64,000 nt of DNA from Squalus acanthias (taxonomy: Eukaryota), in contig CM059432.1 of assembly GCA_030390025.1 (NCBI GenBank), forward strand, positions 27,964,001 to 28,028,000. Direction: 5' to 3'. Under the pieces are notes generated by a model that saw nothing but the letters and a program-made list of their open reading frames with translations, was not told the DNA's origin and did no database searches. Position numbers and translations under genes: made by a program. Positions 2,900 to 63,666 of the stretch are shown in pieces; position 1 is the stretch's first letter, and each line of letters starts with the position of its first letter.

Positions 2900-4340
2900 A
2901 AGAGCTACAAAAAAGGGATATGAAAGGAAACTTGCAAGGGATATCAAAATCAACTCAATTTTTTTTTACTATTATATTAGGAAAAAGAGGATTGTCAGGA
3001 GCAATGTTGGCCCCTTAAAAACTGAAAGCGGTGATATTATCAATGGTAATAAGGAAATGGCGGACATGTTGACTAACTACTTTGTGTCAGTACTTACAGT
3101 AGAGGAAGAGGATAGCATGCCCGAAATCCCAAGGAAACTAAATCAGGGACAGGGACTCAATAAAATTAATGTAAGTAAAATAACAGTAATGAAGAAAATA
3201 ATGGCACTAAAGAGTGACAAATCCCCAGGACCAGAGGTTTCCATCCCAGGGTTTTAAAGGAAGTAGGTGAGTACATTGCAGATGCCCTAACTATAATCTT
3301 CCAAAGTTCTCTCGATTCAGGAACTGTTCCTTTAGATTGGAAAATTGCACATGTCGCTCCGCTATTTAAAAATGGTGAGAGAGGAAACCAGGGAATTATA
3401 GGGCAGTTAGGCTAACATCTGTTGTCGGGAAATTGCTGGAGTCTATAATTAAGGTTAGGGTGACTGAACACCTCGAAAATTTTCAGTTCATCAGAGAGAG
3501 CCAACATGAGTTTGTGAAAGGCAGGTCATGCCTGACAAACCTGAATGAATTTTTTGAAGAGGTAACTAAAGTAGTGGATAGGGGAATGTCTATGGATGTT
3601 ATTTATATGGACTTCCAGAAGGCATTTGATAAAGTCCCACATAAGAGACTGTTAACTAAGGTAGAAGCCAACGGAATTGAGGGAAAATTATTGACCTGGT
3701 TAGGAAGTTGGCTGAGCGGCAGGAGACAGAGAGTAGGGATAATGGGTAGGTACTCAAATTGGCAGGAGGTGACTAGTGGTGTCCTGCAGGGATCTGTGTT
3801 GGGGCCTCAACTATTCACAGTATTTGTTAACGACTGAGATGATGGCATAGAAAGTCATATATCAAAATTTGCCAATGACACAAAGATGGTGGAATTGTAG
3901 GCAGTGTAGATGGAAGTATAAAATTACAAAGGGATATCGACAGATTAAGTGAATGGGCAAAACTGTGGCAAATGGATTTCAATGTAGGCAAATGTGAGGT
4001 CATCCACTTTGGACCTAAAAAGGATAGAACAGAGTACTTTCTAAATGGTGAAAGGCTAAAAACAGTGGAGGTCCAAAGAGACTTGGGGGTCCAGGTACAC
4101 AGATCATTAAAATGTCATGAACAGGTACAGAAAATAATCAAAAAGGCTAATGGAATGCTGGCCTTTATACCTAAAGGACTAGAATACAACAGGGGTAGCA
4201 GTTATGCTGCAGCTATACAAAACCGTGTTAAACCACACCAGGAGTACTGTGAGCAGTTCTGGGCACCACACCTTAAGAAGGATATATTGGCCTTGGAGGG
4301 AGTGCAGCATAGGTTGACCAAAATGATACCCGGACTTCAA
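2900..4340 (+). mobile_element. CR1 (HER1-like) LINE, decayed RT region, 5' part of a split copy
   Basis: ORF fragments KSDKSPGP, YMDFQKAFDKVPH, SGVLQGSVLGP, KCEVIHFG, with frameshifts and stops. Start approximate. Confidence 0.92.
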
Positions 4341-4743
4341 GGGCTCGATTTTCACTGGCCCGTGGAGCGGGATTGGGGGCATGTGGGGAGTTAAAATAGC
4401 AAAGAATGGCGGGCGGGCCCGATCCCGCCTCTGCTGAATTTTCCCAGTTGTGAGTTTTCATATCCCGTTCCCGTCCCGCCTCCAAGAGGCGGGATAGGCC
4501 CTTAAGGCCATTGACAACCACTTAATTGCCTCTATAATCCCATTTTGAGAGGCCTTTCTGATTTTAACACTTTTCCGACGTGATGCACGCCTCCTCTGAA
4601 ACACGACAGTGAAACCTGGTGGTAGCACACTTGGATTGCTGACTATCAGCTGCAGGTCCACCATTAGGAAGGAGTTCTGATCAATCATCATTCTGGGGGA
4701 ACTTTTAGCAGTCATAGACATAGTTGTGGATGTTTGGAGCCTG

Positions 4744-4744
<1 letters not shown>

Positions 4745-4787
<43 letters not shown>

Positions 4788-4807
4788 ATGGTGGTGGTGG
4801 TGGTGGT
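4745..4807. repeat. (AGT)n then (GGT)n microsatellite
   Basis: Directly visible, inside the MITE. Confidence 0.95.
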
Positions 4808-5119
4808 AAATGGTAAATTCTGGGAGCAGACTTAGGTCTCCTGCTGCTCATTTTGCCTCCAGGTCCCTCTCACAGCAAAGGCCAAAAGCATCCCAGTCTT
4901 TGCAGACTTTAAATGCAGCAGCAATGATGACATCATCAGAGGCGACTTTCAGACTGAAAACACTAATTGGGTCATGGGTTCCCACATGCTGGAACTCAAT
5001 TGCCCAATTAGGGGAAAATCGAATAATTCTCCCACATCCAATTGGAGTCGGGTGGCTAACACGAAAAGCGGATGACACGACCCCAGCCCGCCCCAATGAC
5101 AAAATCAGAGACAGACACA

Positions 5120-5470
5120 GGCTGTGAGATTCTCAGCAGCTCAGCTCAGTGCTGTGTGAACGGGTGAGCTCCACACCCCGGCTTGCAGGGAATGCTAGTG
5201 TGGAGGGCCCAGTGCAGAAGGCCTAGGGTGGGAAGGCTGTGAGATTCTCAGCTCAGCTCAGCTCGGTGCTGTGTGAACGGGTGAGCTCCACACCCCGGCT
5301 GCTTGCAGGGAATGCTAGTGTGGAGAGCCCAGTGCAGAAGGCCCAGGGCGGGAAGGCTGTGAGATTCTCAGCTCAGCTCAACTAGGTGCTGTGCGAACCA
5401 GCTGCTCTACACCCCGGCTGCTCGCGGGGAATGCCGGTGTGGAGGGCCCGGTGCAGAAGGCCCAGGGTGG
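5120..5470 (+). repeat. Three tandem GC-rich monomers of ~115-120 bp
   Basis: GGCTGTGAGATTCTCAGC recurs at 5120, 5235 and 5355, each followed by ...CACCCCGGCT...GGGAATGC..GTGTGGAG..CCC.GTGCAGAAGGCC. Confidence 0.92.
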
Positions 5471-6325
5471 AAGACCCAGAGGAGAGTGGCCCAGGCGGGA
5501 GGCCCAGCACTGAGAACCCCAGGCGGGGGGCCCAGGGCGGGGCGGCTGATCGGCAGAGGTGGAGTTGGGAGAAGGTGTGGGTGAGCATGCTGCACTGGTT
5601 CCAAAAGTTAAAGAATGGTCTCGGGCCTGAAGGAGTTCCAGCGGCCCTGTATGTGCTCCGTCTGGCGGCAGCTGTGAGGCTTTTTCTTGGTGACGGGACT
5701 GGGTTTGTGCGCCGCCATTTTGGAGGAGGAAAGACAAACTGTTTCCATCTGTAGTGTGTCACGTGAGTGGTCACAAGATGGAAATGTGAACGGTTAAAAG
5801 TGAAAAAAAGAAGGAAAAATAAAAGGAAGATAAAAGACAAAATAAAGTTATATCGGTAAGGAATAATGACTATTTGATGGCTGGGCCCTGTGAGCGATAA
5901 CAGCAAGTAGAAGAAAATTTGAGTGTTCGGTCTTTTTTACGGGATTGAGATAGTGGATGGTTTCTTTTCCGTGGAAAAGCTGAAGACTGTGGATAAGGAC
6001 TATGACATCACATGGTTGGACAAACATCAAGTGAAAACGAGGAGTTATTAAATTGCCAATAGGACTGGCGTAGAACTGGTATTACTTGTTTTGTTGAAAA
6101 AGCTTCAGGTTTTTCTGGTTGAAAGCAGTCTACTTGAAGCTTATTGATTTCTGATAAGGCTATGGGGTTTTGCACATTGTGTTGTTAATTAGTGGTTATG
6201 TAGAATTTACTTTGAGATTATTGTCTAGTAAATGGTATGTCTTAAAATAAGTTAATGGGGGATAATTAAAAAGAAAAAAAAAGATAAAATAATTTGATAT
6301 TGGTAAGAAATCTGAGTAAACTATT

Positions 6326-6582
6326 GGACGGACGGACGCTTGAGTGAACGAACGAACAAACGATTGAACGCACGCATGCACATTGGAACTTACGCTCGAT
6401 CGAACGAACTATCGTCTGGTCAGCGATTGAACGAGCGAACGCACGCATGCACGCACTTAGACAAATGGTACGCACGCACGCACATTGGAACTTACGCTCG
6501 ATCGAACGAACGGACGAACACTCGAGTGAACGAACGAACGATTGAATGAACGATCGAATGAACGATTGAATGAACAAACGAT
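6326..6582 (+). repeat. CpG-rich complex tetranucleotide array (GAAC/GCAC/GAAT) with an internal duplicated block
   Basis: Runs of gaacgaac and gcacgcac; block gcacattggaacttacgctcgatcgaacgaac occurs twice. Confidence 0.88.
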
Positions 6583-6941
6583 GCCAGTAGGACTGGCGTA
6601 AAATGGGTAGTAGTATATTTACAGCATTTAATTGAATTATGATGGTGCTATGTGATTTGTACACTGGTGTTAATTGGTTTCTTTTATGTGGAGTTTACTT
6701 TGAGATTTATTGTTTTAAATCTATAGAGTTTGTGTGTGTTTATTTAAGGGTATTTGTACTGTAAACTTCGTTGATTTATTTGTAAAACTTTATCATTGCA
6801 TTTATATTGTTAATCATAAAGCTGTTTTTTTAAGGCTTTATTGTTTATTGTGATCAATGAATGAAAAGGTTTACTATGTAATTGATGAGTTGTATAAGTA
6901 CTATTGTACTTGAATAAAAGATTAATGACAAAATCGAGCCC

Positions 6942-7390
6942 CAAGGATTAAGTTACAAGGAGAAATTACACAAATTAGGGTTGTATTCCCTAGAATTTAG
7001 AAGGTTAAGGGGTAATCTGATCGAAGTTTTCAAGATATTAAAGGGAACAGATAGGGTAGATAGAGAGAAACTATTTCCACTGGTTGGAGATTCTAGAACT
7101 AGGGGGCATAGTCTAAAAATTAGAGCCAGACCTTTCAGGAGTGAAATTAGGAAACACTTCTACACACAATGGGAGGTAGAAGCTTGGAACTCTCTTTCGT
7201 AAACGGCAATTGATGCTAGATAATTGTTAATTTTAAATCTGAGATTGATAGCTTTTTGTTAACCAAAGGTATTAGGGGATATGGGCCAAAGGCGGGTATA
7301 TGGAGTTAGGTCGCAGATCAGCCATGATCTCATTGAATGACGGAGCAGGCTCGAGGGGCTGAATGGCCTGCTCCTGCTCCTATGTTCCTA
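6942..7390 (+). mobile_element. CR1 LINE 3' part (continuation of 2900-4340)
   Basis: Removing 4341-6941 and one CAA restores ...MIPGLQ-GLSYKEKLH...YSLEFRRLRG. Ends in a cctatgttccta tail. Confidence 0.92.
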
Positions 7391-8477: not shown

Positions 8478-9709
8478 ATGCAGGCTGAACGACAGAAAGC
8501 TGCCCCGAGATTCAGTGATGCCTCCCTGGAAATCCTGCAGAGTTGCGGAGCCTGCTGGTGGTGGGAGATGGAGAGAGGGGGAACTCCCAGCTACCTGGTG
8601 ACAGAATAAAATATCACACAGCCACGTGGCATACAACAGTCACTCATGTTCACTTGGTGTCAGCAGCCAGTGAAATATGATCATGTGCATAATAGTAACT
8701 TACAATATTCTCATCATAACAATTCTAATTCATATCTTTACTCTCCCACAGGCCCATCAAGTGTCCCCCCCCACTGTCCAGCCAGAGGAGGAAGACGACT
8801 CCTCAGAGGAGGTTGCGGACTCTGAGGGTGCATCGTCACATGACCCGTGCACACCAAGCACCAGCGCAGATATACACACGTCGGTGGGTCCACCAGGTCA
8901 GAAAGTAGTGTTGTCACCTGGTGTCTCACAGATCACATGTGAACAGGAGCAGGTGGAGACAGAGACAGCAGTGGAGAGTCCTCGTCGGAGGGTGCAGGAC
9001 GCTCCAAGCAGTTCTCAGCTGGACGAAGATGAAGAACCTCAGTGGCCGTCGACAAAGTGGAAGATTCTTGAGGAGCAACAGAAAATGCGGGAGAGTTCCA
9101 GCCGCGATGTGCTCGATTGCAGGGAGAATGGAGGAGTCCATCTCCAGCATGACTGGCATGATGTCGCAGGCCATGGCAATGATGTGTTCATCCATGGAAA
9201 GGGTGGCCACCTGTATGGAACATCAAATGCGGCGTTCAAACAAGTGCATGCTTGCTCTGACCAAAAGCTTGCACACTCTGAATGCCACCTTATCTAGGGT
9301 GGATAGAAACCTAGACTTGGCCGTTCATCGCCCCACTGATGTGAAGCAAAGTGTTCTCCAGCTCCTTGCTAGCAGGGAAATGCGGGTAGGCCATGAGAGG
9401 GATGATGGTGACAGGGGACATGGAAGTGGGGTCTCTGCTCAAAGTGCTCCCACTTCTCCCCCGTTGCCCCCCCCTCAGTCAGAGCCCCACATACTGCCTC
9501 GTGTCCCGATGGCCGAGTCTGCCCCTGCACAGGTGCAGGTGGAGCAGTCTTTGGCGAGGCCCTCACAGGCTCCAAAACACAGAGGACATCTATCAAAAGT
9601 GTCTCAGCAGTCAGAGCAGGGAAGTGAGCAGCCTGCCTCTACCTCTGCTGAAGCCACAGGGGTTGCACGGCACAGGAGAGGCAGGAAGAGGAAGATTAAA
9701 GAATTCTAG
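8478..9709 (+). pseudogene. Harbinger Myb/SANT-like DNA-binding partner gene, spliced, internally deleted
   Basis: AERQKAAPRFSDASLEILQ (Myb start); donor CCTG|gtgaca near 8597; acceptor ctcccacag|GCC near 8750. The last exon is acidic then helical, frameshifted, and ends in basic RHRRGRKRKIKEF*. Confidence 0.75.
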
Positions 9710-15005: not shown

Positions 15006-15431
15006 GAGCATACGGTTGCTCCATAACCATTTGCAGCTGGCATTTCAGGGGAAGCCTTAAATAAAATTTCAACTTTCTTCCTGGCTGATCCTTTCCTTTA
15101 CAGGACCACCCTTTATTGTTCCACCTCCATTTTCATTGACTCCAAAGAACAAGCCTTCAAAGGGATTGATGTGCATCAACATGTTTTTAAGAAAAAAAAG
15201 CTGGGCCTAGAAATTCAATAAGGCAAAGAAATGGTCGTGGGCACTGTGATGCGAGCTGTTCAAAAAGCACAGGCAACACGTCAACTTCGTGCTGCCTGCT
15301 AATTATCATGATTGTAGCGCACAGCCTTGCGCTGAATGTATGGCTGACAGGCTGTGTGCTCAGCAGGGAACCCAAGTTTGCATTGTTTGAGTGAGGCTAG
15401 CTTTACTTAAAGCTAGCCTGCTCCTCTTAAA

Positions 15432-15638
15432 GGCAGTATGTACCTCTTAAAGGTGAGCTGCCTTCTGCACATGAAAAAATGTAAAAGTGATTCAGCACTA
15501 GGCAGTCTGCATCTCCGAAAGGTGAGCTGCCTTCTGCTGATGAAAAACTGTAAAAGTGCTTCAGCCCTAGGCAGTCTGCACTTCTTAAAGGCGAGCTGCC
15601 TTCTGCTGATCAAAAATGGTAAAAGTGCTTCAGCACTA
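15432..15638 (+). repeat. Three tandem 69-bp units in front of the Myb start codon
   Basis: GG(T/C)GAGCTGCCTTCTGC at 15452, 15521 and 15590; ATG at 15645. Confidence 0.92.
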
Positions 15639-15704: not shown

Positions 15705-17875
15705 AGAAACATAGAAACATAGAAAATAGGTACAGGAGTAGACCATTCGGTCCTTCGAGCCTGCACCGCCATTCAATGCGTTCATGGCTGAACATGCTAC
15801 CTCAGTACCCCATTCCTGCTTTCTCGCCATACCCCTTGATCCCCCTAGTTGTGAGTGTTATATCTAACTCCCTTTTGAATATATTTAGCGAACTGGCCTC
15901 AACAACCTTCTGTGGAAGAGAATTCCATAGATTCACCACTCTCTGGGTGAAGAAGTTCCTCCTCAGCTCAGTCCTAAATGGCTTCCCCTTAATCCTTAGA
16001 CTGTGACCCCTGGTTCTAGTTTTCCCTACCATTGGGAACATTCTGCCCGCATCTAATTTGTCTAAACCAGTCAGGATTTTAAATGTCTCTATAAGATCCC
16101 CCCTCATTCTTCTGAACTCCAGAGGATACAAGTTCAGTTGACCCAATCTTTCTTGATATGTCAGTCCGGCCATCCCAGGAATCAATCTAGTGAACCTTCG
16201 CTGCACTCCCTCAATAGCAAGAATGTCCTTCCTTAAGTTAGGAGACCAAAACTGCGCACAATACTCCAGGTGTGGCCTCACCAAGCCCCTGTACAACTGC
16301 AGCATCACCTCCCTACTCCTGTACTCAAATCCCCTTACTATGAAGGCCATCATTCCGTTTGCTTTCTTGACTGCCTGCTGCACTTGCATTCCCACCTTCA
16401 ATGACTGATGTACCATGATGCCCAGGTCTCGTTGCACCTCCCCTTTCCCTAATCTGCCACCATTCAGGTAATAGTCCGCCTCTCTATTTTTACCACCAAA
16501 GTGGATAACCTCACATTTATCCACATTGTACTTCATCTGCCATACATTTGCCCATTCACCCAACCTGTCCAAGTCACTCTGTAGCCTCCTAGCATCCTCC
16601 TCATTGTTCACACTGCCTCCCAATTTAGTGTCATCCGCAAATTTGGAGATATTACATTTAATCCCTTCGTCCAAATCATTAATATATAATGTAAACAGCT
16701 GGGGTCCCAGCACCGAACCCTGCGGTACCCCGCTGGTCACTGCCTGCCATTCTGAAAAGTACCCATTTACTCCTACTCTTTGTTTCCTGTGTGCCAACCA
16801 GTTCTCAATCCACGTCAACACATTACCCCCAATCCCATGTGCTTTAACTTTGCTCACCAATCTCTTGTGTGGAACCTTGTCGAAGGCCTTCTGAAAGTCC
16901 AAATACACCACATCTACTGGTTCCCCCCTGTCCACCCTATTGGAAACATCCTCAAAAAATTCCAGAAGATTTGTCAAGCATGATTTCCCTTTCACAAATC
17001 CATGCTGACTTGGACCTATCATGTCGCCACTTTCCAAATGGTCTGTTATGACATCTTTAATAATTGCTTCCATCATTTTACCCACAACCGATGTCAGGCT
17101 GACCGGTCTATAATTCCCTGCTTTCTCCCTCCCTCCTTTTTTAAAAAGAGGGGTTACATTGGCCACCCTCCACTCCATCGGAACTGATCCAGAGTCTAAG
17201 GAATGTTGGAAAATGATCGTCAATGCATCCACTATTTCCAAGGCCACCTCCTTAAGTACTCTGGGATGCAGACCATCAGGCCCCGGGGATTTTTCAGCCT
17301 TCAGTCCCATCAATTTTCCCAATACCTTTTCCCGACTAATAAGGATTTCCCTCAGCTCCTCCCTCTTACCAGATCCTCTGACCCCTTTTATTTCCGGCAG
17401 GTTGTGTGTGTCCTCCACAGTAAACACCGAACCAAAGTACTTGTTCAATTGATCTGCCATTTCCTTGTTCCCCATTACGACTTCCCCTGTTTCCGACTGC
17501 AGGGGACCTACGTTTGTTTTTACTAACCTCTTTCTTTTTACATATTTATAGAAGCTTTTGCTGTCCATTTTAATGTTCTCTGCAAGCTTCCTTTCATATT
17601 TTATTTTCCCTGCCCTAATCAAACCCTTCATCCTCCTCTGCTGAGTTTTGAAGTTCTCCCAGTCCCCGGGTTTGCTGCTACTTCTGGCCAATTTGTATGC
17701 AACTTCCTTGGTTTTAATACTATCCCTGATTTCCCTTGTTAGCCATGGTTGAGCCACCTTCCCTTTTTTATTTTTACGCCAGACCGGGATGTACAATTGT
17801 TGTAGTTCATCCATGTGATCTCTAAATGTCTGCCATTGCCCTTCCACTGATAACCCCTTAAATATCGCTTGCCAA
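15705..17875 (-). mobile_element. Young 5'-truncated CR1 (HER1-like) LINE
   Basis: Complete 3' UTR ending in (TTTCTATG)n on the minus strand; TTTAT on both sides (15700-15704, 17876-17880). Confidence 0.95.
15802..17875 (-). CDS. Uninterrupted CR1 ORF2 frame (linker, reverse transcriptase and C-terminus; no endonuclease, no native start)
   Basis: ORF track 697 aa with KSPGPDG, NYRPVSLTS, YLDFQKAFDKVPH, GVPQGSVLGP, FADD. The first few residues come from flanking DNA. Confidence 0.9.
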
Positions 17876-18830
17876 TTTATGCAGGGGGTCAACACTGGAG
17901 GAAAGGTCCTCTACCCACAGGAGACCAGGAGGCCCTCCAGAAAGAAGGATGTGAGACCAGATCGCCGAGGTGGTTACTGCCAGCATTTTTACCCCCAGGA
18001 CTTGGCTCCAGTGCCCAAAGAAGTTTCATGACCTCAGACCAGTGGTCAAGGTCAGTGAATGCATCTTCAAAAGCCGTCTCCTACCAACTGCACCACTAGC
18101 CTCACACACTGCTCAATATACATCTCACCCACCCAATCACTCACCTACCAACAATCTCTACCAAACATGAGGCACACCTCGCATTACTAGCTTCACCTCA
18201 CCTCCTTGGAGGAGACGGTGCTGGCCAATCTTGGCAGGGGCATGGCTGAGCCCTTGGCCAGCAGCAGGGTTGAAAGAATACAAGATGCTAGTATCCTCGT
18301 ACGTTATCCTCCTTCTCACATCCCACTTTCCCCTCATCCCATAATATCCTGATTTACAAGCTGCATATGCTGTAAACATGCACCTCTTGCTTTACCCTCC
18401 TCCCCTCATCACAACCCTACCCTTGTGCCTTCTCATTTTAGACACCCAAGAAATCCAGCCAGTGGTTAACCAAGAAGAGGGAGAGGAGGGTAAAGAAGAA
18501 GAAACACCGTCACTCAATTTCACACACCCAGCCACCAGCTCCTCGAGGTTGTCCTGCAAGGCCATATGCCATCTCCCCCACTGAAAGTCAAGCAGCCTTC
18601 CACCAGCCATGCTGCAGCCACTGGGGTAGCACTGCGTAAGAGCACTCGGATAGGCAAAGGCACACACAGGACAGTCACTAAGGGAACGTACAAGGGTGAT
18701 TAGTTGATTAGTTTGCATTTTGGTGGCTTTTATTTCAGCATTGTGGCCAAGAGGAAGTTGTGATGGTCAGTAACAGAGGGAAGGGAAGGTGTGGGACTAA
18801 TGCTGAAAGGGGAATTGGGGTTGTGTTCAC

Positions 18831-47790: not shown

Positions 47791-48655
47791 GGGCTGGATT
47801 TTACTTACCGAGATGAGTTGGGGGCGGGACTGCTGCCTTCTGGGTTCTAGTCACGCCCCCAGCGATGTCCGACGCACAGACGCTATTTTCCCCTGATTGG
47901 CCTTGTTAAGCCCACCCTGTGGGCTTGCTGGCCAATTAAGGGAAAGCCGGTGTCAGATGACGTCAGTTGATGACGTTTCATCTGCCGGTTTTCTTACAGG
48001 TACATGAACCATAAATTTTTGACAGATGATTTGACAGTGTTTGACAGCATTGAGGTACTGTCAAACACTGACAATCACTGTACAAAGGTGAACCCTTGCT
48101 CCCAGGCTCTCCAATAACTCTCCTTAGGATAAAACAGATGGCAGCTGTAGGTGAGGGTACAGAAGCAATCTGTCACTTCTCCCAATGAGGTGAGGTCACA
48201 CAAACACTTCAAAGCTTGTCACCTGCAGAAAAGTCTAAACACATTAAAAATGACTTTCCCAACATTTCCTTACCTCTGATACTCACCAGTGTCCCATTGC
48301 ATCCTTCACACCACTTCTGCAGCTGTCATCTAAACACAAACATTAGAACAGACCCACAGCACGCCACACTTACCCTGGCGGGGTTCCCCGACGTCGGGAA
48401 GCCCGCAGCAGAAGTCGCAAAATGGGAAAAAGCCTCTTAACTGCCTGTTAACTAGCTGTTAACAGGCAGTTAAGTGGCTATAATCCTCTTCCCGCCACTA
48501 GGAGTCGGGTCCCTGCGCAAATTGGGGACCCGACTCCCGGGAAGATTGTTTGGAGGCGGGTTGGGAGCAAGTTTGGGACCCGCTCCCATTCTTTTTGATT
48601 TTCCCAGCAGTCCTGCCTCCAAACCCGCCTCCTCAGGGCTGGTAAAATCCAGCCC
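47791..48655. mobile_element. Harbinger-type MITE, 865 bp, inserted in a DeuSINE remnant
   Basis: Perfect 14-bp TIR GGGCTGGATTTTAC; TSD TTC; internal palindrome ttaactgcctgttaac...gttaacaggcagttaa. Confidence 0.93.
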
Positions 48656-55150: not shown

Positions 55151-55499
55151 ATAGGTTTGCTACCTAGTAGAAAACAAATTTTTCGCAGCAGCTTCATAGA
55201 GAGTACCATTTCATGTCTCAAGTTCCTTCTCAGCCGCTCCATTCAATAGTAACTTTCAAAAAGGAATTGAATATATACTTGTACAGGAAAAATTTGCAGG
55301 GCTATGTTGTCGCACTAGTAATCCAGAGAACGTGAATTCAAAATTCCACCATAGCAGTTTGAGAATTTGAAAATGGTACTGCTCCCTCCCAGGCACCAAG
55401 AAACCCTGTCTATTCCACTGGCTCTTGGTGTCTCCAGAGGCATAAGTGGTAGCTCATTAGCATAATGCAACTATTAAGCAGAATATGACCTAAACAAAC

Positions 55500-56900
55500 C
55501 AGTTGATAAAGCTGGTAACAAAGCATACAGGATCCTTGGCTTTACAAATAGAGACATAGGGGGCGATCTTGCCAGCCCTGGGGAGGTGGGTATGGAGGCG
55601 GGACTGCCGGGAAAATGGCAGAATTTGGGGGCGGGAAGGGATTAAAGCCTATTAACTGCCTGTTAACAGTTAGTTGACAGGCAGAAAATAGGATTATCCC
55701 CTTTTTGCCCTCACAAGTGCGGGCTTCCCGAAGGCTCTGAAACCCGCCAGGTCAGCGAGGGGCGTGGTGGGTCTGCGGGGGTCGGAGGGGTGCAAAAGTG
55801 TGCAGTGAAGGTAAGTGATGGGTGCAAGAGTGGAGAGGTGAGTATCTGAGGTAAGTGCAAAGTGTTAGTAAAAGTGTACTTACCTTTGTTTCTTCCTGCA
55901 GGCTTCGATCGGTGTGTATGCGGAGAGTCTCGGACCTCCGCGTTGGAGATGACAGGTGGCCGTTGCATTCTCCAATGTAACAACCGTCTCATTTCTGCAA
56001 AAGAAAGAAGTTTGACGAGGTCTTGAATTCAAGACCTCATCAAACAACAGAGAATGTCAGTGTTTGACAGCTTCACAGAGCTGTCAAACGATGACAATTC
56101 ATTTGTCAAAATTTTTTGACAGATGGAACGTCATACATTGACGTTCTCTGCAACCGGCTTTCCCTTAATTGGCCTGCTAAACCCGCTGGGCGGGCTTAAC
56201 AAGGTCAATCAAGGGAAAATAGCTTGAGTTGGCCAGAATTTGATGGAGGCGGGACTGAAACCCGACAAGTGGGAGTCCCGCCTCCAAAAGCTCCCCATTG
56301 AGAAAATCACCCCCATAGAGTACAAGAGCAAGGAAGATATGCTAAACTTTTATAAATCACTGGTTAGACCTCAGCTAGTGTATTGTGGCCAATTCTAGGC
56401 ACCACACTTTAGCAAGGCTGTCAAGGCCTTAGAGAGGGTGCAGAGGAGATTTGCTAGAATTGTACTAGGTATGAGGGGTTTCAGTTATCTGGAGAGACTA
56501 GAGAAGCTGGAATTGTTCTCCTCAGAGCAGAGACGGTTATGGGGAGATTTAGTAGACGTGTACAAAATAATGAGTGATTTTGACAGATGAGACTGTTTCC
56601 ACTGGCAGGAGGGTCAATAACCAGAGGACACATATTTAAGGTAATTGACAAAAAAGCCATGGGGGGAGATGATTTTTTTACTCAGCAAGTTATGATGATT
56701 TGGAATGAACTGCCTGGAAAGGTGGTGGAAGCAGATTCAATAGTAACTTTCAAAAAGGAATTGGATATATACTTGTACAGGAAAAATTTGCAGGGCTATG
56801 TGGAAAGAACAGATGAGTGGGACTAATTGGATTGCTCTTTCAGAGAGCTGGCACAGGCACGATGGGCCTAATGGCCTCCTTCTGTACTGTATGATCCTAT
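55500..56900 (+). mobile_element. CR1 3' fragment split by a MITE
   Basis: Removing 55559-56314 and one ATA restores ILGFTNRDIEYKSKEDMLNFYKSLVRPQL. Confidence 0.88.
55559..56314. mobile_element. Harbinger-type MITE, 756 bp
   Basis: TIR GGGGGCGATCTT / AAAATCACCCCC; TSD ATA confirmed by the interrupted LINE frame; related to the 47791 and 62821 MITEs. Confidence 0.92.
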
Positions 56901-62820: not shown

Positions 62821-63666
62821 GGGCTGGATTTTCAATGACCCGTGGAGTCGGGTTTGGAGGCGGGGGGGGGGGGTTAAAGTTGCAGATTCGGGGGTCCCGA
62901 CCCCATCCCGCCTCCAACCCGCCTCCATGCCAGTTTCTCTGGCGGCGGGTACCCGATCTGTGCTGAGACCCGACTCCCCGAGGTGGGAAGGGATTAGTGA
63001 CAATTAACTGCCTGTTAACAGGTAGTTAACAGGCAGTTTTTTGCATAATCCCTATTTTAAAAAGAAAAGTGTGGGCTTCCCGACAGGTGGCAACCACGCC
63101 AAGTTATCGGGGCGGGCCGTGGGTCTGCAGGGGTTGGAGGGGTCGATATGTCCGGTGGGCAGGTGAGTGATGGGTGCATGTGTGCAGAGGTAAGTGTGTA
63201 AGGTAAGTGCTAAGTGTTGGAAAAAGTTTTACTTACCTTAACTTCCTCCTGCAGGTGTCAGCCCTTCAGCTCTCGGGAGTTAGAAATCTCACCGGCACAG
63301 AAAGCAGGAAAGCCGTGGTTCTGTCAAAACCTGCAGCCTTCTGTTTTCTGTGGTGGAATGATTTCTAACTCAGCCTGAGAGGAAGGACTGAAGTTAGAAA
63401 TCATATTGTGAGTGTTTGACAGCTTCACAGAGCTGTCAAACACTGATATTTCAACTGTCAAAAGCTCTTGACAGATGAAATGTCAGTCTGTGATGTCACC
63501 TGTTGCCGGGTGGCCCTTAATTGGCCTGCTGAGCCCACTGGGCGGGCTCAACAAGGTCAATCAAGGGAAAATACAGTGGGTTGGCCACATCTCGATGGAG
63601 GCGGGTTCACAAGGCAGAATGTGTGATTCCCGACCCCAACCCGACCCCAGTTTCAAAATCCAGCCC
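62821..63666. mobile_element. Harbinger-type MITE, 846 bp
   Basis: Perfect 12-bp TIR GGGCTGGATTTT; TSD GAG; same family as 47791-48655 in opposite orientation. Confidence 0.93.

Follow-up and report, generated by a model that had tools for sequence, protein, structure and literature searches.

Large non-coding retroposons that are transcribed by RNA polymerase II (Pol II), and that are neither SINEs nor evident deletions of LINEs, are known from few lineages, those named in the excerpts of PMC4494074 being SVA/LAVA and Sadhu. The SVA/LAVA elements of apes are about 2 kb in length, composite and ORF-less, with a GC-rich VNTR, a terminal poly(A) signal and a target site duplication (TSD), and are presumed to be Pol II transcripts moved in trans (excerpts of PMC4494074 and PMC5753468). 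We report a 1.8-kb element that shares this architecture and, by analogy, may share this mode of transcription and movement; relative to SVA/LAVA, it has no Alu/7SL part (Rfam was blank) and no recognisable retroviral part, its tandem array lies at the extreme 5' end, it lacks a poly(A) tail and its helper is probably Tx1 rather than L1. Sadhu of Arabidopsis is likewise a non-coding retroposon that is neither a SINE nor a LINE derivative and has no Pol III promoter, but the present element is twice as long, with 5' monomers, an internal duplication, a microsatellite-like array and an animal host (PMC4494074, in excerpt).

Tx1-associated insertions into non-autonomous DNA transposons, with long TSDs, are represented by the crocodilian SINEU and Tx1-Mar/Tx1-9_AMi elements and by Xenopus Tx1 in Tx1D; for SINEU-3 the TSD is 16 bp, and tandem insertions occur (excerpts of PMC4494074). 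Unlike the present element, SINEUs are mostly shorter than 500 bp, with an snRNA head and a poly(A) tail, and the target preference that is proven there is hinted at here (same excerpts). The bipartite ORF-less LINEs (Bov-A, RIME, Vingi and R2 derivatives) and HAL1 are also Pol II-transcribed and helper-dependent, with UTR-like 5' and 3' parts; in the excerpts of PMC5786205, the ORF-less forms known as of 2018 derive only from RTE, Ingi, Vingi and R2, and the L1-derived HAL1 retains ORF1. No similar sequence that might represent the partner LINE of such a pair is present elsewhere in the window, by which we mean the whole 64-kb stretch of DNA analysed. Mouse L1 has tandem, GC-rich 5' monomer promoters that differ between subfamilies and a YY1-like site, features that recur here; in mouse L1, however, ORFs follow the monomers, and the promoter role of those in our element is putative.

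The element is an insert of 1,817 bp (5107-6923) with an identical 12-mer on either side (5095-5106 and 6924-6935, + strand), the left copy of which consists of 6 bp of MITE subterminal sequence and 6 bp of the MITE's right terminal inverted repeat (TIR). Excision of 5107-6935 rebuilds a 772-bp MITE (4341-6941 with the insert) with identical 12-bp TIRs (4341-4352 and 6930-6941) and a 3-bp CAA duplication on its two sides. The right copy of the 12-mer overlaps the MITE's TIR at 6930-6941, and the element thus splits the right terminal repeat of its host, which we take to be Harbinger-type from its TIR and TSD pattern. The MITE in its turn interrupts a decayed LINE ORF2, presumably CR1-type, whose left part (3195-4340, + strand) matches RVT_1 with an E-value of 1.3e-19 and whose right part (6942-7390, + strand) is, by sequence comparison, the continuation of the same ORF2 together with its 3' end; the MITE's flanks match residues 549-580 and 582-665 of a 702-aa ORF of the same type elsewhere in the window, so that the split is exact. 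By count alone the 12-mer is not significant, since a search of the window that allows 1 mismatch finds two occurrences where 0.61 are expected and 12 of 100 shuffled windows also reach two. It is its position that makes it a real TSD: removal of the insert restores the MITE, and the MITE's flanks are consecutive parts of one ORF2. The preliminary description had already read the 12-mer as an exact TSD made of the MITE's own sequence, and the reconstructable MITE and its ORF2 target bear this out. As the MITE splits the CR1 ORF2 and the element splits the MITE, the order of events was CR1, then MITE, then element.

Several neighbouring features of these host families may be recorded. The host MITE contains a (TAG)14 run that grades into TGG repeats (4745-4805), and two further MITE-like sequences (47791-48655 and 62821-63666) have 12-bp TIRs that are one letter off those of the host, with only the first 80-90 bp aligning. 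Overlapping open frames of 207 and 266 aa at 8674-9709 (+ strand) give no Pfam match at E 0.01 and have the look, we assume, of a decayed Harbinger accessory gene. The 702-codon CR1-type ORF2 frame itself (15802-17910, - strand) runs from the RT through to the C-terminus and is much better preserved than the window's remaining LINE fragments.

Read on the + strand, the element begins with a 12-nt leader (5107-5118), which is either the true 5' end or junction sequence, and continues with three GC-rich tandem monomers (5119-5472), a putative promoter array. These had been put at some 117 bp each and were found to measure 115, 120 and 119 bp, with a period of 120, 89% matches and 62% GC. A GC-rich segment (5473-5706), absent or tandemly repeated in other copies, leads to a core (5707-5793, + strand) with what we take to be a YY1-like motif, GCCGCCATTTT, at 5711, an E-box, CACGTG, at 5760-5765 and a second YY1-like site on the opposite strand, CCATCTT, at about 5775-5784, as well as a hairpin (z -2.5). 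Two units follow on the same strand. The first (5794-6250) comprises a purine run (5796-5864), the segment 5865-6053, a motif at 6054 and an AT-rich block; the second (6242-6730) comprises a purine run, a CpG-rich GAAC/GCAC array (6326-6581), a hairpin (6583-6597) and an AT-rich block. The element closes with a T-rich 3' tail (6731-6923, + strand), which holds a short terminal hairpin, AATAAA at 6913-6918 and 5 more nucleotides. The YY1-like motif, the purine run, the motif pairs at 6054/6582 and 6206/6694, the GAAC array and the AATAAA, all listed in the preliminary description, are every one present.

That description also spoke of two diverged AT-rich blocks separated by the GAAC array. Both blocks and the array are there, but the duplication is larger and takes in the purine run: the AT-rich (B) blocks align with a score of 86, against a shuffled maximum of 64, and the purine runs (5794-5890 and 6242-6340) with a score of 69, against 53. 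On sequence comparison, then, the two AT-rich blocks are best read as halves of one old tandem duplication of about 450-490 bp. The middle parts of the units align no better than chance (27 against a shuffled 31), the second of them being the GAAC array, and as the purine run is duplicated too, this array occupies the place of the segment 5865-6053 of unit 1. The best-kept motif between the units (6054-6072 and 6582-6600) is possibly a protein-recognition element. In unit 2 it includes a perfect hairpin (6583-6597; GCCAGT-AGG-ACTGGC, a 6-bp stem with a 3-nt loop, z -2.2) that has no equivalent in the unit 1 counterpart (z 0.26), and the monomers and the GAAC array fold no better than shuffles (z 0.16 and -0.46). 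The CpG richness that had been proposed holds for the GAAC array, with an observed/expected ratio of 2.25, but not for the monomers, which at 0.35 are no richer than the window (0.40).

No coding capacity was recognised. Neither the 9 ORFs of the element nor its 6 read-through frames contained a Pfam family scoring at cut-off; the longest plausible-looking ORF on the + strand, of 122 aa, found 0 relatives among 1.84 billion representatives, in a longer-protein search and in the Atlas; and the protein-like stretches 5386-5754 and 5554-6045 (a read-through) found none in word-seeded searches. The ORF1 and ORF2 (APE-RT) of an autonomous L1/Tx1 LINE are absent between the TSDs, and the 12-bp length of the TSD, for this one copy, falls within the range of such LINEs (about 7-20 bp). 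Structured RNA signatures are also lacking, with 0 Rfam matches at gathering thresholds (one chance hit, E 1.2) and 0 tRNAs by ARAGORN in the element. It has none of the Pol III SINE traits that were looked for, namely a tRNA, 5S or 7SL head or a B-box pattern, and it carries 10 runs of four or more T on the + strand. Its termini match at 9 of 30 positions and give an inverted-repeat score of 19, against a shuffled maximum of 25, and there is no terminal direct repeat; a MITE or other cut-and-paste transposon was rejected for its lack of terminal inverted repeats. Pfam, the protein searches, Rfam, ARAGORN and terminal-repeat scoring thus agree with the preliminary view of an element devoid of ORF, tRNA head, TIR and LTR. 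Two further candidates were set aside: Ngaro-type split repeats, as the element's repeats are internal and only about 70-75% alike, and a Helentron/DINE-type origin of the GGAC/GAAC array, in view of the 12-bp TSD and the lack of subterminal repeats, judged against what we take to be the traits of that family.

Within the 64-kb window there is no second copy by self-BLAST or nhmmer (best nhmmer E 2), but the element is multicopy in public sequence runs. Sixteen of these, from five organisms, contain 6-28% of its 31-letter words, and contigs from four of the 16 were aligned to 4900-7120 at 85% likeness: two DNA runs of organism A (X1 and X2), a DNA run of organism B (X6) and X7, which is only guessed to be RNA. 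No run among the 16 is recorded as RNA, and the small word shares of organisms C, D and E (0.07-0.10) are left out of account. In each of the three DNA runs all 30 bins are covered, and for the 24 bins that belong to the element depth has a median of 19,735 in X1, 5,188 in X2 and 471 in X6. The contigs most like the window copy have depths of 29 (X1) and 8.4 (X2), which puts the element at about 620-1,200 times single-contig depth, or, in crude terms, at some hundreds up to about a thousand copies; the tool itself warns against reading depth as copy number, and the ratio is an order of magnitude only. The element is about 1-2% as deep as its host MITE (ratio 0.008-0.023 across the DNA runs), and the corresponding ratio of 0.014 in X7 lies inside that range and so allows no conclusion on expression. 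Since all of the element's parts are multicopy in two organisms, a one-off captured fragment, the outcome by which the preliminary description would have been overturned, is excluded for these parts. Scans for a 19-letter motif in metagenomes (2 loci) and a 16-letter motif in viruses (21 loci) returned chance matches, 0 of the 23 loci aligning to the window.

The contigs also show how copies vary, subject to the joints being 15 of 33 and the rows of intervening letters 12 of 25, and to several sides, at 85% likeness, being shorter than 30 letters. The segment 5473-5706 is absent from some other copies (a contig of X7; joint 5211->5707 in X2 and X6), as where a 594-letter contig runs from monomer sequence (5252-5450) directly into the core (5707-6080), with the equivalent joint in X2 and X6. 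A go-back joint among those listed, 5572->5410, reaches a depth of 750 in X2 and 112 in X7: other copies carry a different tandem unit of about 174 bp (~5410-5583), which fits a depth peak at 5425-5574. At the other end, joint 6925->6429 in X2 and X6 (sides of 26 and 37 letters) shows, in two organisms, the same 3' base followed by a GAAC array, with no A run, and lends independent support to the 3' boundary. No exact empty-site joint (5106->6936) is found among the 15 of 33 joints, and an X1 joint 5106->7040, which has unidentified letters in between, was not taken for an empty allele. The 24 loose-end rows listed, of 1,010, include none at 5107 or 6923, which is uninformative, since contigs break at repeats. 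No TSD of another copy is visible in the contigs.

We regard the element, at a probability of roughly one half, as one member of a multicopy family of non-LTR retroposons that lack ORFs and are copied by a helper of the Tx1/L1 clade. The suggestion of a family, made earlier from the sequence, is supported in part: the element is multicopy, non-coding and flanked by a TSD, its 3' end is defined and its 5' tandem arrays are variable. Most likely, Pol II would transcribe the + strand from the GC-rich 5' monomer array to just after the AATAAA, and the proteins of an autonomous Tx1/L1-clade LINE would reverse transcribe the RNA at a staggered nick, through target-primed reverse transcription. What results is a 12-bp TSD, as seen for the window copy, with little or no poly(A); the contig joints show family members swapping and enlarging their 5' arrays and dropping internal segments. 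The window copy itself entered the right TIR of a MITE that already lay within a CR1 fragment. On the nicked strand the target reads CATT/GG, a weak fit to the L1 consensus, TTTT/AA. In whale shark and elephant shark, Tx1 is present and L1 occurs only as fragments, according to the excerpts of PMC8455134 and PMC5203782. On both counts Tx1 would be the likelier helper. The main anomaly of such a Tx1/L1-helper origin is the missing poly(A) tail, 5 nt after the AATAAA being followed directly by the TSD, whereas elements mobilised by L1 (SVA, Alu, retrocopies) typically carry such a tail. Cleavage canonically falls 10-30 nt past the poly(A) signal, a distance that the end of the element does not reach; perhaps the first A residues were primed against the TT of the target.

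The TSD and the terminal AATAAA would fit equally well if the element were instead the end left by 5' truncation of an autonomous Tx1/L1-type LINE whose 3' UTR was very long, and tandem-repeat-rich or captured, the monomers being an internal VNTR at which reverse transcription stopped. Depth does climb from the monomers to the 3' part in X2 (4.2k, 4.7k, 15k) and X6 (257, 483, 629), as 5' truncation would give under either reading; in X1 it does not rise from the core (27k) to the 3' part (22k), and the gradient is thus uneven across runs. We consider the LINE-end explanation unlikely, as no frame holds a trace of an ORF2 C-terminus, copies with internal skips exist, and GC-rich monomers with YY1-like and E-box motifs would, by analogy with mouse L1, resemble a 5' UTR.

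The homology of units 1 and 2 raises a further alternative, a local chimera in which two related shorter elements, one ending at about 6250 and one at 6325-6923, became fused within a single TSD, whether through a template switch or a tandem insertion, the unit of the family then being shorter than the window copy. Depth across 6100-6324 collapses to about 1-6% of that of neighbouring bins, and among the pieces listed no contig spans the whole element or bridges 6211-6325. Furthermore, three of the joints listed (5517->6624, 5558->6526 and 5560->6526) connect the GC segment to the 3' half, and 6925->6429 runs from a 3' end into a GAAC array. The dip, however, overlaps a skipped A-rich repeat (6262-6298) that partly accounts for it, block B1 is at multicopy depth (277 in X1, 84 in X2) and continues as a diverged version in X6, and the sides of the linking joints are only 24-26 letters long, all of which leaves the chimera quite unlikely.

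We find it very unlikely that the element comes from an LTR/ERV-type or Penelope-type repeat, as a piece that was retroposed or captured during repair, in a family not mobile as a unit by target-primed reverse transcription. Enhancer repeats, promoter motifs and a terminal poly(A) signal are LTR traits, and Penelope TSDs can be about 12 bp in length; the fairly flat cover over 1.5 kb, the enhancer-like tandem repeats, the promoter motifs and the terminal AATAAA would suit such an origin. Against it stand the AG...TT ends, the lack of terminal repeats by the scores given above, the 12-bp TSD and the recurrence of the 3' end in another context (6925->6429). A solo LTR, with TG...CA ends and a TSD of 4-6 bp, was rejected on the first and third of these features. 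The hammerhead ribozyme typical of Penelope-like pseudo-LTRs is also missing from the Rfam search, minimal hammerheads being able to escape Rfam, and a single CTGANGA core has no closing stem. That the element is a one-off insertion, or a multicopy lncRNA or mRNA retrocopy with no self-propagating family, is highly improbable, for although cartilaginous fishes have 14,081 retrocopies (excerpt of bioRxiv 10.64898/2026.06.26.734816) and the window copy is of a rare type (single-copy-depth contigs in X1 and X2), each of its parts has a depth hundreds of times that of a single contig, and there are structural subfamilies.

Some observations bear on the choice of target by the proposed Tx1/L1-helped family. 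In X6 and X7, joint 5106->5252 connects the right end of the MITE to monomer sequence through letters unlike those of the window (depth about 14.6, sides of 25 and 34), where chance would give 0.02-0.23 such junctions under rough assumptions; it could represent another insertion into that site, a MITE inside an element, or one locus common to the two organisms. The MITE-end/monomer junction hints at a site preference. Both 3' junctions seen start with AA and have AATCGA 7-8 nt downstream, a likeness that was noticed post hoc. Such preferences have precedents: for SINEU-3, 313 of 347 cases are found within Mariner-N4_AMi, Tx1-9_AMi favours Harbinger elements and Xenopus Tx1 enters Tx1D (excerpts of PMC4494074). 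A fuller and tentative proposal, which we consider improbable as a whole, is that of an independently evolved, SVA-sized, tailless, ORF-less Pol II retroposon of cartilaginous fishes, with mouse-L1-like monomer turnover and a Tx1 helper that would prefer the right TIR of an abundant Harbinger MITE and the element's own GAAC array.

The age of the insertion had been given as recent, from the intact TSD and CpGs. This finds no support. The best public runs share 28% of the element's 31-letter words, equivalent to a difference of about 4%; of the 40 differences listed (of 226), 21 are carried by at least 90% of the depth in all three DNA runs and 5 are CpG losses in the window copy; and at 4% divergence two 12-mers remain identical with a probability of 0.38. 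One single-copy-depth contig each in X1 and X2 is 98-99% identical to the window copy over 5519-5678 (2-3 differences), with none in X6, and the majority differs there. A close match confined to single-copy-depth contigs, against a different majority, makes the window copy one of a rare type; the two contigs represent this very locus or, alternatively, a small subfamily of organism A.

A literature search turned up no account of the family, the sources including excerpts of PMC3747384, PMC5381603, PMC5753468 and bioRxiv 10.64898/2026.06.26.734816, and four motifs of the element were absent from the main text of papers. As judged from this literature, the element is probably a new form of ORF-less retroposon, though it may be listed in Dfam, Repbase or the whale shark repeat library as an unclassified repeat. 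If it is such an entry, or a LINE 3' end, it is ordinary. If instead hundreds of copies arose via Tx1, in a lineage with only fragments of L1, this would show that Tx1 proteins are able to act in trans on long foreign RNAs that have no poly(A) tail, and the family would offer a handle on the source of retrocopies in cartilaginous fishes as well as presence/absence markers.

Two other repeats of the window deserve mention. At 15431-15638, a 69-bp unit occurs three times in tandem with 86% matches. Within LINE 3'-end sequence, a 67-bp direct repeat with one mismatch (55241-55307 and 56735-56801) has its copies about 1.5 kb apart, and might represent a duplication of exceptional length that flanks an insert.
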